Assembly: GCA_017609085.1 (NCBI GenBank)
Contig: JAFCEO010000002.1
Coordinates: 1 to 57,539 of the forward strand
Direction: 5' to 3'
DNA length: 57,539 nucleotides
Source of the DNA: Candidatus Pacearchaeota archaeon
GTDB taxonomy: Archaea; Nanobdellota; Nanobdellia; Pacearchaeales; GW2011-AR1
The translations under genes were made by a program, and so were the position numbers. Below, in pieces: positions 16,946 to 57,539 of this stretch; within the stretch, counting starts at the first letter, position 1, and every line of letters starts with the position of its first letter. Under the pieces are notes generated by a model. The model was not told where the DNA came from, made no database searches, and saw nothing but the letters and a program-made list of their open reading frames with translations.

Positions 16946-17047
16946 GGGCCTGTAGCTCAATGGATAGAGCATCCGCCTTCGGAAGGCAGATTATCATAGA
17001 AAACTTGTAGAAAGCGGACGATAGGGGTTCAAGTCCTCTCAGGCCCA
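16946..17047 (+). tRNA. tRNA-Arg(TCG) with 37/38 intron (16983-17012)
   Basis: GGGCCTG/CAGGCCC acceptor; TCCGC-CT-TCG-G^A-GCGGA after intron removal. Confidence 0.9.
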
Positions 17048-20365: not shown

Positions 20366-20452
20366 GAGGCTGTAGCTCAGTCTGGTTAGAGCACTGCTCT
20401 GATATAATTTTCAGACAGGCAGGGGTCCGCGGTTCAAATCCGCGCAGCCTCA
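20366..20452 (+). tRNA. tRNA-Ile(GAT) with 37/38 intron (20405-20416)
   Basis: GAGGCTG/CAGCCTC acceptor; CTGA/TCAG central helix of the splice motif. Confidence 0.92.
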
Positions 20453-49265: not shown

Positions 49266-49352
49266 TGGATCCGGAGGGATTTGAACCCTCGACACCCAGG
49301 TTAAGAGCTTCACCACGATTCTGGTGCTCTAACCAGACTGAGCTACGGATCC
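49266..49352 (-). tRNA. tRNA-Lys(CTT) with non-canonical 30/31 intron (49309-49320)
   Basis: Removing AATCGTGGTGAA gives CCAGG-CT-CTT-AA-CCTGG; CACC/GGTG central helix. Confidence 0.9.
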
Positions 49353-54799: not shown

Positions 54800-54800
54800 A

Positions 54801-55055
54801 ATGAAATCTTCTCAAGTATCTCTGCAAATAGGTAAAAGAGGATTAACACACGGCACTATTGAAGCAATAAAAAATGCATTTAAAACAAGAGAGAATGTTA
54901 AAGTTTGTGTTTTAAAAAGTGCAGGTCATGAAAAAAAGAAAATTAAACAGATAGCAGAAGAAATTCAAAAAGAGTTGGGCGAGAGATATACTTATAGAAT
55001 AATTGGGTTTACAATTTTCTTAAAAAAATGGCGGAAAGCGAGAAATTTTAAATAA
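54801..55055 (+). CDS. YhbY/CRM RNA-binding protein
   Basis: QIGK.GLT, E.VKV..L, IG...L; likely ATG at 54801. Confidence 0.85.
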   Translation: MKSSQVSLQIGKRGLTHGTIEAIKNAFKTRENVKVCVLKSAGHEKKKIKQIAEEIQKELGERYTYRIIGFTIFLKKWRKARNFK

Positions 55056-55059
55056 ATCG

Positions 55060-55160
55060 ATCTTTGAGTCCTCAGCTCTGTTTCGTTCTGCTACGCTCCT
55101 CGTCTATGGCTTCGGAGAATATAACACACATTCAACAAAATTCAGGCGGCTCACTTAGAT
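55060..55160. repeat. Structured spacer element E1 (most divergent copy)
   Basis: Outer stem ATCT.TGAGTC/GGCTCA...AGAT, GCTACGCT, inner CTCC/GGAG hairpin, ATATAAC-ACACATT. Confidence 0.55.
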
Positions 55161-55194
55161 ATTAATTAGAGTAAAAAAAGAAAGCAAATCAAAA

Positions 55195-55416
55195 TTAGTC
55201 TAATGGCCTATATTGACATTCTGTTGCCAAGATATATCTTTTTGGATCCGTATCCAATTCAATTATTGTTCTATATGGTTCTTCTACATCATCTCTAACG
55301 ATTCTTCCTTTTAAAGTTCTTGAAGTATCATAGTTAAAACAAACTTCTACAACTTTGTCTAAATGTTCTCCTTGTTGAGGGAATCTATCAAAACCTACAT
55401 TTTTTACAACGCCCAT
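55195..55416 (-). CDS. Small hypothetical protein (cassette 1)
   Basis: 73 aa with SD-like AAGGTGG and a TTTATAAA box upstream. Confidence 0.8.
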   Translation of the reverse strand: MGVVKNVGFDRFPQQGEHLDKVVEVCFNYDTSRTLKGRIVRDDVEEPYRTIIELDTDPKRYILATECQYRPLD

Positions 55417-55463
55417 TTTAATCCACCTTACAAATAGTATAAACTTAATCTTTATAAATCTTT
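55417..55463 (-). promoter_or_regulatory. TATA/SD leader module, near-duplicate of 56740-56786
   Basis: Minus strand AAAGATTTATAAAG...TATACTATTT.TAAGG.G.ATTAAA-ATG in both copies. Confidence 0.75.
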
Positions 55464-55604
55464 AGGGTGATGGGGGCTTTGCCTTGATACGCCGATTTTT
55501 TACTTTGGATTTTTCGGCTTCGCCCAACGTTGCACTAAAATCCAACCTTCGCTAACGCTCAGGGAAACTAACACGCATTGTGCGAAATTCACTCCGCCCA
55601 CCCT
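55464..55604. repeat. Structured spacer element E2
   Basis: AGGGTG/CACCCT outer stem, TTGGATTTT/AAAATCCAA hairpin, TCGCTAACGCTCAGGG (identical in E4), ACTAAC-ACGCATT. Confidence 0.75.
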
Positions 55605-55647
55605 TTCAATACTTTTATAAATAATTAAAAATTACTAAATTAGTAAT

Positions 55648-56292
55648 ATGAATAAAAAATTCAATATTCAGGTTCCAAAAGAACATTATTTTGGAAAATA
55701 CGATGATTTAATGAGATTTATATCTTATTTTTATCAAATTGATTTGGTCAGAAAATTAAAACCAAACAATGTTCTTGAAGTAGGAATTGGAAATAAAACT
55801 GTTTCTAATTATCTTAAACAAAATGGAATAAAAGTTGATACTTGTGATTTTAATAAAGATCTTGAACCAAATTATGTTGCTGACATTAGAGAGTTACCCT
55901 TTAAGGACAAATCTTATGATGTTGTTATGGCTTGTGAAGTTCTTGAACATATCCCTTGGAAAGATGTGGAAAGAGCATTAAAAGAACTCCATAGAATTTC
56001 AAAAAAACACGTCCTTATTTCTATTCCTTATTCTTCAACAGGATTTGAATTGCTGTTCAAATTTCCACTAATTGGTAGAATTCTCAAAAGACCTTTTTTG
56101 GATTTATTTTTAAGAATTCCCTATTTTTTCATTGGGATTAAATTTTCTGGTGAGCACTATTGGGAAATGGGTAGAAGAAATTATTCAAAAAGAAAAATAA
56201 AATCACTTTTTGGAAAGTATTTTAAAATAATAAAAGAAATTAGGCCTATTTTAAACCATTATCATTATTTTTTTATTCTTGAAAAAAAGTAG
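55648..56292 (+). CDS. Class I SAM-dependent methyltransferase (cassette 2)
   Basis: VLEVGIG, D, LPF.D.SYDVV...EVLEH motifs; own TTTATAAATA box. Confidence 0.9.
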   Translation: MNKKFNIQVPKEHYFGKYDDLMRFISYFYQIDLVRKLKPNNVLEVGIGNKTVSNYLKQNGIKVDTCDFNKDLEPNYVADIRELPFKDKSYDVVMACEVLEHIPWKDVERALKELHRISKKHVLISIPYSSTGFELLFKFPLIGRILKRPFLDLFLRIPYFFIGIKFSGEHYWEMGRRNYSKRKIKSLFGKYFKIIKEIRPILNHYHYFFILEKK

Positions 56293-56384
56293 GAGGCGGG
56301 GCTCCGTGAACTCAAAATTACTTCATAATTTTGGTGCTAACGCACTCGCACAACAGCGATTATACTCAATTGCGAGTCCGCCTC
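56293..56384. repeat. Structured spacer element E3
   Basis: GAGGCGG/CCGCCTC outer stem, TGAACT-CAAAATTA/TAATTTTG, GTGC-TAAC-GCAC, GCACAAC-AGCGATTAT. Confidence 0.8.
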
Positions 56385-56535
56385 TTTCAGAGGTTGCCAC
56401 CGAAAATTTTTAATGTTGTTTCCTTCGTTAAAATTCACAAACAAAAAAGAAGTAACAAAAATGTTTCACAAATCGTCTAACAAAATTTTAACGAAATTGC
56501 TGAAGATTTTAAAATAAATAAAAACGAAAGAAAGA

Positions 56536-56739
56536 TTATAATTTTTCAACTAATGTTTTGCTTTCTATTTGTCGTCCAGAAAATTGAGTTTTTTGTATTT
56601 GTGTCATCCAGTCTACATATCTTTTTTCAGGACCCGGATTTGGCAAAACACTTGGTTTTGTTTCTTTTTTAGGTATTTGTGTCATCCAATCAGCATATTA
56701 CCTTTCTGGACGATTTTCTATTGCATTTGGATTATACAT
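56536..56739 (-). pseudogene. Short repeat-containing ORF interrupted by TAA (cassette 3)
   Basis: MYNPNAIENRPER*YADWMTQIPKKETKPSVLPNPGPEKRYVDWMTQIQKTQFSGRQIESKTLVEKL. Confidence 0.65.
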
Positions 56740-56786
56740 TTTAATTCGCCTTAGAAATAGTATAACTTATTCCTTTATAAATCTTT
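56740..56786 (-). promoter_or_regulatory. TATA/SD leader module, near-duplicate of 55417-55463
   Basis: Aligns to 55417-55463 with 4 substitutions and 2 single-base indels. Confidence 0.75.
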
Positions 56787-56807
56787 CCTAATTTACTACT
56801 CTGAAGT

Positions 56808-56908
56808 TAATATTGACGCCCGATTCTGAACTCAAAATCCTTTGGATTTTGCCCCGCTGCGCTCTCGCTAACGCTCAGGGCACATAACGCGCATTAAATG
56901 AAATATTA
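56808..56908. repeat. Structured spacer element E4
   Basis: TAATATT/AATATTA outer stem, TGAACT-CAAAATCC/GGATTTTG, TCGCTAACGCTCAGGG, ACATAAC-GCGCATTA. Confidence 0.8.
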
Positions 56909-57157
56909 CTCGGCGGTTTTATCAGCACTAATTATCTTTTCAATTCCTTGTCTTATTTCTCTTAGAAAATCTTCAACATTCATATCTCCCGCATTAATTT
57001 CAAAGTTCCCGACTCTAATACAATGTTCAACGGTTTGTTGTTTTGAGTAATCTAAATTTTTATAGACTACTACTATACATTTACCATACTGATCTAATTC
57101 AAATGTTTTAGGATGTGCATTTATCTGAATATAATACTCCCAAATAGGTCTTTTCAT
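56906..57157 (-). CDS. Small hypothetical protein (cassette 4)
   Basis: 83 aa; TTTAAATA box upstream; stop overlaps the E4 right arm. Confidence 0.7.
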   Translation of the reverse strand: MKRPIWEYYIQINAHPKTFELDQYGKCIVVVYKNLDYSKQQTVEHCIRVGNFEINAGDMNVEDFLREIRQGIEKIISADKTAE

Positions 57158-57199
57158 ATTTTTAGATTAAAGAAAAATATTTAAATATCTCGATTACAA

Positions 57200-57310
57200 A
57201 CCGCCAAGTAATACTCAAAACTTTTTATACTTGCAAAGCTCATTAAAAAGTTTTGGTTTTCTCTCCGAGAAAACTCACTTAACAGCGATTATGTCTATTC
57301 AGAATTCGGT
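57200..57310. repeat. Structured spacer element E5
   Basis: ACCG/CGGT outer stem, ACT-CAAAACTTTTTA/TAAAAAGTTTTG, GTTTTCTC/GAGAAAAC, ACTTAAC-AGCGATTAT. Confidence 0.8.
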
Positions 57311-57539
57311 CTAAATGATGCAATTATCAGAAGACATTTTCATTATTACCTCTTTTCCTAATAATTCTTCTAGTTTTTTCCTGAAATCTTCCTCGTTTTT
57401 TTTCACATCCTATTGCTTCTATTGAAGAAAGGCTACCAGAGGCTACTTGAACAAAAAATCCAGGAGATATAAAATATCTATACATTCTTCCAGAATCATC
57501 TTCTGTTTCCCAATCCCTCCAACCAAGATATCTTACATC
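57311..57539 (-). pseudogene. 3' part of a gene running off the window (cassette 5), apparent frameshift in an A8 run
   Basis: ...YLGWRDWETEDDSGRMYRYFISPG...GCEK, then after removing one A: NEEDFRKKLEELLGKEVIMKMSSDNCII*, with the stop abutting E5. Confidence 0.5.

Follow-up and report, generated by a model that had tools for sequence, protein, structure and literature searches.

Recombination in integrons is thought to need an IntI-specific domain that reads extrahelical bases of the folded attC site, and the repeats of Vibrio cholerae are long, homogeneous chromosomal attC sites. In archaea, XerA and dif serve chromosome resolution, with one dif per chromosome and dif arms that are conserved in sequence. 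The CTX phage is a Xer-exploiting element that integrates as folded single-stranded DNA. Archaeal integrons were described from 75 MAGs, mostly as CALINs and with six IntIs (Ghaly et al., 2022, PMC9668308), and the five Nanoarchaeota rows in Data S1 of that paper list two to four attCs and no IntI. Full-text literature searches for an integron-like system of Xer type in DPANN brought up only Ghaly et al. (2022) and two papers on Asgard mobile elements, and no account of such a system.

The window, by which we mean the whole stretch of 57,539 nucleotides that was analysed, is the entire contig C7 of an archaeal assembly (583 kb, 31% GC, 27 contigs), and archaeal rRNA and a form-III-type RuBisCO are encoded on it. 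The last 2.5 kb of the contig, after a YhbY/CRM gene (54801-55055), form an array of five GC-richer spacers, E1 to E5, every one on the plus strand, with small ORFs of both orientations between them. This array is integron-like, of a variant kind, and the spacer at its center, E3, is quite probably a site-specific recombination site within it. E3 and its four sisters share one layout, consisting of an outer arm, ACT, a hairpin H1, a hairpin H2 and YAAC-N4-A|TT, where the bar marks the predicted crossover. The parts of the array are as follows.

55056-55130, plus strand: E1, the first site, directly 3′ of the YhbY/CRM gene; AAC at 55123-55125, then ACAC-A to the junction 55130|55131.
55131-55577: cassette 1, starting TTCAACAAAAT; 73-aa ORF at 55195-55416, minus strand; TATA-like promoter region at 55414-55463.
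End of cassette 1, to 55577: left part of E2, with ACT at 55502-55504, H1 at 55505-55545 with the mini-hairpin GGCTTCGCC, then CGTTGCACT, H2 at 55546-55563 with GCTAACGC, R″ GAAACTAAC at 55564-55572, ACGC-A.
55578-56359: cassette 2; methyltransferase ORF (Pfam methyltransferase match) at 55648-56292, plus strand; left end TTGTGCGA at 55578-55585, TTCAC, CTCCGCCCACC at 55592-55602; right end E3, running GGAGGCGGGG, GTGAA, ACT, H1, H2, R″ TCGCACAAC at 56346-56354, AGCG-A.
56292-56384, plus strand: E3, the end of cassette 2 as far as 56359 and then the start of cassette 3 (TTATACTCAAT...).
56292-56301 and 56378-56384: outer arms of E3, GGAGGCGGGG and CCGCCTC.
56310-56312: ACT of E3.
56313-56333: E3 hairpin CAAAATTA-CTTCA-TAATTTTG.
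56334-56345: E3 hairpin GTGC-TAAC-GCAC.
56346-56362: R″ end of E3, TCGCACAAC-AGCG-ATTA.
56360-56893: cassette 3; 110-nt non-coding element at 56420-56530; broken small ORF at 56536-56742, minus strand; promoter-like copy at 56737-56786.
End of cassette 3, to 56893: left part of E4, with ACT at 56830-56832, H1 at 56833-56851, CGCTGCGCT, GCTAACGC, R″ GCACATAAC at 56880-56888, GCGC-A.
56894-57288: cassette 4; left end TTAAATGA plus inverted repeat TATTACTCGGCGGTTT at 56904-56919; 83-aa ORF at 56906-57157, minus strand; inverted repeat AAACCGCCAAGTAATA at 57198-57213.
End of cassette 4, to 57288: left part of E5, with ACT, H1 at 57216-57255, H2 at 57256-57274, R″ TCACTTAAC at 57275-57283, AGCG-A.
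57289-57539: start of cassette 5, TTATGTCT..., an R′ type known from relatives; minus-strand ORF truncated by the contig end, with the array continuing off the contig.

The features that a sequence-only reading had listed for E3 to E5 (outer stem, ACT hairpin, second hairpin, YAAC end) are all present in the sequence where that reading placed them, and YAAC-N4-ATT occurs in all five spacers of the window. Besides E3, the ACT-CAAAA..TTTTG hairpin is found in E4 (56830-56851) and E5 (57213-57255), and in E2 the hairpin following ACT has TTGGATTTT..AAAATCCAA in place of CAAAA..TTTTG. The GCTAACGC motif is present in E2, E3 and E4 and at six unrelated sites of the 583-kb genome. E1, in which H1 and H2 are not clear, which the element HMM described below missed and whose fold is no better than shuffles, looks decayed. 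Aligning the five spacers with MAFFT was of no help, column identity being 45%.

The strand of the ORFs varies along the window array while the orientation of the sites is constant. Promoterless co-oriented cassettes, which are an integron trait, are not what is seen here: the ORFs lie on both strands and have TATA-like TTTATAAA regions upstream. Two 50-nt regions 5′ of minus-strand ORFs (55414-55463 and 56737-56786) are 82% identical between two cassettes and carry the TATA-like TTTATAAA together with a ribosome-binding-like AAGGTG or AAGGCG, suggesting that the cassettes have their own archaeal promoters. There is no recombinase beside the window array; housekeeping genes lie to the left of E1, so the array is without an integrase of its own (CALIN-like).

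Homologous sites are common among related archaea with tiny genomes. A BLAST search with 55056-57539 matched 84 of 101 genomes of the same family at a lenient E ≤ 0.01; the strong matches were to the E2 core (55502-55579), with 80-89% identity in many genera, often several on one contig and often at contig ends. When aligned, the E2-core matches show compensatory changes in the inner hairpins. An nhmmer search seeded with three elements of one relative and run on 18 fetched regions gave about 40 elements in the first round and 71 after one iteration; in the relatives, about 60 distinct elements lie in same-strand arrays. In the window's own genome, the element HMM detects E2 (E 1.6e-8), E4 (E 6e-4) and another element near the end of contig C8; E1, E3 and E5 were not detected at E ≤ 0.01, which counts against the reading that we favor. 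Searching 301 sampled genomes of the phylum by BLAST with one full element matched 69 of them (one flagged unpublished) at E ≤ 1e-6, from many families, with element identities of up to 98-99% between genera and families.

The full element of the relatives is longer than that of the window and is built as follows.

5′ part: cassette-specific GC-rich arm, ACT, H1 (motif CGYTGCRCT), H2.
Middle: R″ (..YTAAC), four bases, L″, two hairpins around CCAAAT.
3′ part: ACTTC, L′, CGCGATG|TTA.. (R′, often GTTAGTTTCAAT).

Within these long elements, covariation of L″ with L′ can be read by eye in three cases, ATTAAGAG/CTCTTAAT, ATTATCTG/CAGATAAT and ATTTAA/TTAAAT. In the order of its boxes the long form thus agrees with an integron attC, to which it adds a 5′ H1/H2 module, and that module is the structure that the sequence-only reading described. 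The window has the short form at all five of its sites, R″-N4-A|TT-next cassette, without L″, the terminal structure or L′.

A cassette, as delimited by these sites, starts with TT, a short cassette-specific sequence and a GC-rich arm; its body is one ORF with its own promoter, in either orientation; and at its far end come the complementary arm, ACT, H1 and H2, followed by a stretch that is complementary to the cassette's first bases and has AAC as its last letters, and then by four bases and A. The claim that the spacers contain only half an attC therefore holds for the spacer as placed in the array and fails for the cassette, the complementary half (TT plus 6-8 nt) being the beginning of the same cassette, on the opposite side of its ORF. 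Each spacer is a chimera of one cassette's end and the next one's start, an outcome of recombination, which is why it appears to hold half an attC. It was likewise noted that no complementary GTTRRRY follows the E3 motif, and there is none in the spacer; a weak AATGTTG is found beyond it, at 56412-56418. The outer stem had been described as self-complementary within the spacer; the arms of E3 do pair, but the outer stem is mostly a cassette-spanning pair.

Two of the four window cassettes (2 and 4) have complementary ends. TTGTGCGA (55578-55585, after E2) is the exact complement of E3's TCGCACAA (56346-56353) at 8 of 8 positions, and E4's TTAAATGA matches E5's TCACTTAA at 7 of 8; in cassette 4, the 83-aa ORF is also flanked by the 16-nt inverted-repeat arms, which are 94% complementary. 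In the relatives we compared the six bases after GTT of one site with the six before AAC of the next, counting a pair as complementary if at least 5 positions were. Among adjacent pairs with a gap below 1.6 kb, 13 of 22 were complementary (15 of 28 with all gaps). The two ends of a single site were complementary in 4 of 35 cases, the rate over all 2223 all-against-all pairs was 9.9%, and none of 20000 permutations reached 13. The nine adjacent pairs that failed count against a cassette-spanning match, one apparent failure being a site missed in the first round. At least 12 different complementary R″/R′ types are present in the relatives. The inverted cores R″ (..AAC) and R′ (GTT..) of integrons, with R′ pairing with the R″ of the next site, are thus found here, the window boundary being an A|TT variant. 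In one relative (locus L036, G095:C16, 1222-8330), an R′ GTTAATAGA is the perfect complement of an R″ TCTATTAAC 7.1 kb away, and this multi-gene stretch may act as one large cassette.

When each left part in the window was folded with each right part as bottom-strand DNA, rejoining the ends of cassette 2 gave a gain of -7.6 kcal/mol, compared with -1.3 in the array and -0.8 or weaker with other partners. For cassette 4 the gain was -13.8 kcal/mol, compared with -1.4 in the array, and the fold had a 17-bp outer stem and three hairpins. The rejoined cognate ends of both cassettes are predicted to form four-way junctions in which H1, H2 and an R hairpin, whose loop has 4 nt, meet the outer stem. 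Four results of this analysis count against the cassette-spanning reading: the cognate ends of cassette 1 are weak (gain -4.0 kcal/mol, with another partner better); those of cassette 3, which has the broken ORF, are unpaired (gain -0.4); the left part of E4 has as its best partner the right part of E5 (gain -7.1); and the arms of E3 itself pair in the array (7 bp), which that reading makes superfluous. Cassette 3 is decayed.

It had been suggested that crossovers might be mapped from chimeric copies. In two unrelated metagenome runs, contigs either match 56295-56362 or match from 56360 and then diverge (short contigs, likeness ≥ 90%); the similarity thus breaks at 56360-56362, at the predicted crossover 56359|56360. 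Among the contigs of two DNA runs (shares 0.10, 0.09), no excision product, empty site or joint was seen.

Both the conservation of pairing and the identity of the folding strand can be assessed from the homologues. In 16 E2-type homologues, 95.2% of 207 H1/H2 cells are paired compared with 84.9% in shuffles, and 27 cells have two-sided changes compared with 9.9; none of 500 shuffles reaches the observed values, and slid controls give at most 70.5% paired. The proposal that the stem sequences change while pairing is retained is therefore borne out, and the absence of covariation, which was to have refuted it, is not what we find. Across 62 elements there are 90 clean stems compared with 46.7 in shuffles. 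Folded in the array, E3 beats nearly all of 200 shuffles on both strands (z -4.05 and -4.22), as does E5 (z -3.9 and -3.5); E1, E2 and E4 are not better than shuffles (z +1.6 to -1.7).

Several observations bear on DNA versus RNA. Among the H1/H2 pairs (207 cells) the bottom strand has five G.T pairs and the top strand has none; this is the strand assignment by wobble pairs that the sequence-only reading called for. Over all stems the top strand has 17 G.T (16.3 in shuffles) and 33 A.C (22.3 in shuffles), a modest lean to the bottom strand, and the 33:17 asymmetry counts against a strong conclusion, with composition alone giving about 1.4:1. The loops are more telling. The commonest in the 62 elements, C-TTC-G (20), T-TGC-A (10), C-TAC-G (5) and C-TGC-G (5), read C-GAA-G, T-GCA-A, C-GTA-G and C-GCA-G on the bottom strand, and the GC-TAAC-GC hairpin of the sequence-only reading is GCGTTAGC on that strand. 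C-GNA-G words number 149 on the bottom strand and 8 on the top (shuffles 29.9 and 17.6), and GCGNAGC words 43 and 0; genome-wide, the two strands have equal rates (1.07 and 1.12 per kb). According to PMC13037366 and PMC3201870, d(GCGNAGC) and d(GCGNNAGC) are extraordinarily stable DNA mini-hairpins, and d(GNA) loops are very stable. The loop motifs thus point to the bottom strand as the folding strand, and taken together with the G.T pairs and the position of arms upstream of cassette promoters, they suggest folded bottom-strand DNA and argue against plus-strand RNA. Rfam gave no match over 54800-57539 at gathering score and, at E ≤ 10, chance-level matches only (best E 4.3). A tRNA-like reading, based on a 14-nt identity of E3 with the D-arm region of a tRNA on contig C5, was dropped: ARAGORN and Rfam find no tRNA there, and the 14-nt motif is the GCGNNAGC mini-hairpin. 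UUCG-tetraloop RNA was also rejected, as the loops are 3-nt TNC with a closing C-G pair and read GNA on the opposite strand.

In contrast to the window, the related arrays adjoin a tyrosine recombinase gene. The IntI model TIGR02249 scored above its cut-off in none of the 101 family genomes, and the tyrosine recombinases match it at 1-185 and 237-315, without 186-236; an IntI-family integrase with the additional domain, as in integrons, was thus not found. For 51 recombinase genes from the top of the TIGR02249 match list we fetched 50 loci. Element matches lie near 16 of the 51 genes, and all 31 matches are upstream of and divergent from the gene, none being downstream or co-oriented; a further 10 genes have less than 1 kb upstream before the contig ends. 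A divergent adjacent recombinase with an attI site, an integron trait, is therefore lacking in the window and present in relatives. In the tree, the array-linked enzymes form two clades, both separate from a clade that is XerA-like. The first, clade A (13 rows, support 100/100), has arrays in seven cases, a contig end in four, none in one, and the copy from the window's own genome; clade B (15 rows) has arrays in six, a contig end in five and none in four; three stray recombinases have two arrays and one contig end; and the XerA-like clade (21 rows) has an array in one case and none in 20.

All three clades match NCBIfam XerA (NF040815; C 279, B 246 and A 228/212 bits), and all are below the cut-off of NCBIfam IntI (212 and 206 bits compared with 265). 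Among PDB entries, clade A is nearest to IntI4 (2A3V, E 2e-43) and clade B to XerA. A clade-A enzyme aligns with 2A3V over 15-201 and 243-319, skipping about 41 residues (~202-242). Clade-A homologues are very numerous in metagenomes, mostly on short contigs, and are named XerD, tyrosine recombinase and once "tyrosine recombinase/integron integrase" in Nanoarchaeota/Pacearchaeota records.

Upstream of the recombinase start codon is a GTT-N6-7-AAT site, conserved in the sequence to its left and variable in that to its right. It lies 135-163 nt upstream in 11 of 13 clade-A loci, one of these at 286 nt, and 85-101 nt upstream in 10 of 15 clade-B loci (three with less than 260 nt inspectable). From this arrangement it looks like an attI-like site, to which the first cassette would be joined at G|TT. 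The elements were typed as long or short by HMM coverage, regex typing being unreliable. Of 13 element matches in clade-A arrays, 10 are short, two intermediate and one long, while all 15 elements of clade-B arrays are long; counted by array, the short type is found in 6 of 7 for clade A and 0 of 6 for clade B. Site type thus follows recombinase clade, on the basis of only 13 arrays and of elements that are not independent within an array.

The window's own genome has a second locus, on contig C13, with an integron-like arrangement of array, attI-like site and recombinase.

C13:2-76, minus strand: element at the contig start.
C13:90-866, minus strand: cassette ORF flanked by GGCGCCCT arms; duplicated AGGGCGCC arms at the locus.
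C13:1-1821 (whole locus): attI-like CGCATATGTAGTGTTAGTTTCAAT between the cassette and the recombinase gene.
C13, beyond the attI-like site: clade-A recombinase pseudogene, frameshifted, with about 37 residues gone between the lysine hairpin and HxxR.

This pseudogene is the sole clade-A recombinase of the genome, and the window's copy of the array is probably inactive today. The genome's other tyrosine recombinase, which is XerA-like (C4:508-1250), is in two frames with an intervening stop, which is either a real frameshift or an assembly error.

The model that we favor for E3 would work as follows. A cassette would be excised as a circle, so that its two ends meet, and folding of the bottom strand would produce a four-way junction whose arms are the outer stem, the two hairpins H1 and H2, and an R-box hairpin (..AA|T-N4-GTT..). 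The enzyme would be a tyrosine recombinase derived from XerA, of the clade found beside such arrays in relatives, and would exchange a single strand at A|TT, just as G|TT is used by integron integrases; by analogy with the AA|C of attC, the single exchange would be on the bottom strand at AA|T, and H1 and H2 may serve as a scaffold or in extrusion. What the sequences show is the family, the layout of the arrays, the H1/H2 covariation, the complementarity across cassettes and the recombinase association; the single-strand chemistry is something we infer, and it counts against the model that the insert by which integron integrases act on folded attC is missing from the recombinase. The earlier suggestion of a single-stranded DNA recombination substrate is supported: cassettes are delimited by the sites, A|TT (G|TT in relatives) is where the crossover maps, the mini-hairpins are of DNA type on the bottom strand, and related arrays adjoin a recombinase. 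As a whole, that interpretation is partly supported. Beyond E3, we put forward tentatively, and with rather less confidence, that DPANN have a second kind of integron, run by XerA paralogues without the IntI insert and with two enzyme clades that each have their own site design.

The same reading had offered a structured ncRNA as the other possibility, in which the spacers would be a cassette 3′ element, a terminator or insulator, or an sRNA, with the stems as RNA helices. The elements are indeed GC-rich and structured within a 31% GC genome, and H1 and H2 covary, as RNA helices would. Yet the wobble pairs fall on the minus strand, the GNA/GNNA loops of that strand are a DNA-specific stability motif (149 versus 8), Rfam recognizes nothing, and the orientation of the sites is fixed regardless of that of the ORFs. 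Moreover, the arms are overlapped by cassette ORFs of both orientations, and the pairing partners lie on opposite sides of an ORF and upstream of promoters, which one transcript cannot explain. We therefore regard an ncRNA as very unlikely.

A somewhat better case, though still an unlikely one, can be made for cassettes that are MITE- or IS-type units with terminal inverted repeats, or that integrate by Xer in the IMEX manner at a double-stranded dif-like site, with no folded strand. Inverted repeats of 10-16 bp do flank each ORF, the recombinases are XerA paralogues, and the geometry of the rejoined core, with an arm of 8-9 bp on either side of 6 bp, is that of a classical tyrosine-recombinase core site; the arms, however, vary among cassettes and match only inside a cassette, which suits recognition of shape and not of a conserved double-stranded arm sequence. 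A conserved 11-6-11 double-stranded site with sequence-specific arms, as in dif, is not seen: only the inner (Y)TAAC and TTA are conserved, and the outer 5-6 arm bases come in the at least 12 complementary types. The strong enrichment of DNA mini-hairpin motifs on one strand, the constant orientation of the sites and the fixed distance of attI-like sites from the recombinase gene also speak against these readings, and neither a transposase nor target duplications were seen. A classical CALIN, with ordinary attC sites and either a canonical IntI absent from the assemblies or cassettes acquired from bacteria, would agree with the five rows of Data S1 in Ghaly et al. (2022, PMC9668308), which are Pacearchaeales/Woesearchaeales MAGs, and with the R″/L″/L′/R′ boxes, AAC and GTT in the long sites of relatives. 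We consider it very improbable in view of the failure of all 101 family genomes to pass the TIGR02249 cut-off, the array-side recombinases without IntI4 residues ~202-242, the window sites entirely without L boxes, the extra conserved H1/H2 module, and cassettes with their own promoters in both orientations.

Compared with known systems, the integron-like arrays described here resemble integrons in the divergent tyrosine recombinase gene, attI-like site and same-strand array of single-gene cassettes (in relatives), in the AAC...GTT inverted cores with the cassette boundary at G|TT and each in-array site a chimera, in the signs of bottom-strand folding, and in the existence of integrase-less, CALIN-like arrays such as that of the window. 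They differ in that their enzyme is one of the XerA paralogues and lacks the IntI-specific insert, that a conserved two-hairpin module lies 5′ of R″ together with an outer cassette-specific stem, that the window type has neither an L box nor a variable terminal structure (R box plus 4-nt loop, crossover A|TT), and that the cassettes bring their own promoters in both orientations. With XerA/dif they share the enzyme family (NF040815), and a single exchange on a folded hairpin that mimics the core site is conceivable; here, though, the arms vary with the cassette and the sites lie in arrays, whereas the housekeeping XerA-like clade is array-free in 20 of 21 cases. Like the V. cholerae repeats, these are long, sequence-conserved, branched sites inside one lineage's sedentary array, but there is no sequence relationship, and the extra hairpins lie outside the R box and not in the terminal structure.

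If this reading is correct, a widespread cassette system that runs on plain Xer-type enzymes would widen the known routes of gene capture. As one form of the system has a site wholly lacking the L box, it would follow that the L box, extrahelical bases and the IntI insert are dispensable for folded-strand cassette capture, and the H1/H2 module might instead position the second recombinase subunit or drive strand extrusion; the window design would then be a hairpin with an R box alone, placed within a four-way junction that DNA mini-hairpins build. Such a system would explain hypervariable, assembly-breaking regions of DPANN genomes, would reveal gene flow (98-99% element identity across genera and families), and would provide a testable DNA substrate of about 90 nt for structure-specific tyrosine recombinases. 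Surveys of the IntegronFinder type would overlook the integrase, and probably the majority of short sites as well.

Some further features of the window and its genome were noted along the way. The element of about 110 nt at 56420-56530 is a conserved non-coding long hairpin, TTCGTTAAAATT...AATTTTAACGAA with an A-rich loop, 3′ of the small minus-strand ORF of cassette 3; it has a second copy in the same genome (C8:23257-23359, 84% identical) and is found in several relatives with compensatory stem changes. In one relative (G021) its minus strand has a CGATGTTATGC motif that resembles a site end. Matches in another relative (G033) were rejected as sites, as they are this separate 110-nt element, and locus L025 is without an element. 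The broken ORF of cassette 3 contains a 45-nt direct repeat (56589-56633 and 56667-56711, 78% identical), and the homologous cassette of G021 has an intact 178-aa ORF where that of cassette 3 is broken. The start of contig C25 (~62) and the end of contig C27 (~18803) have identical sequence around a ACTCAAAA match, probably an assembly overlap. Elsewhere in the window, Rfam finds tRNAs of 87-102 nt at 16946-17047, 20366-20452 and 49266-49352 that ARAGORN does not call, and these are probably intron-containing archaeal tRNA genes.
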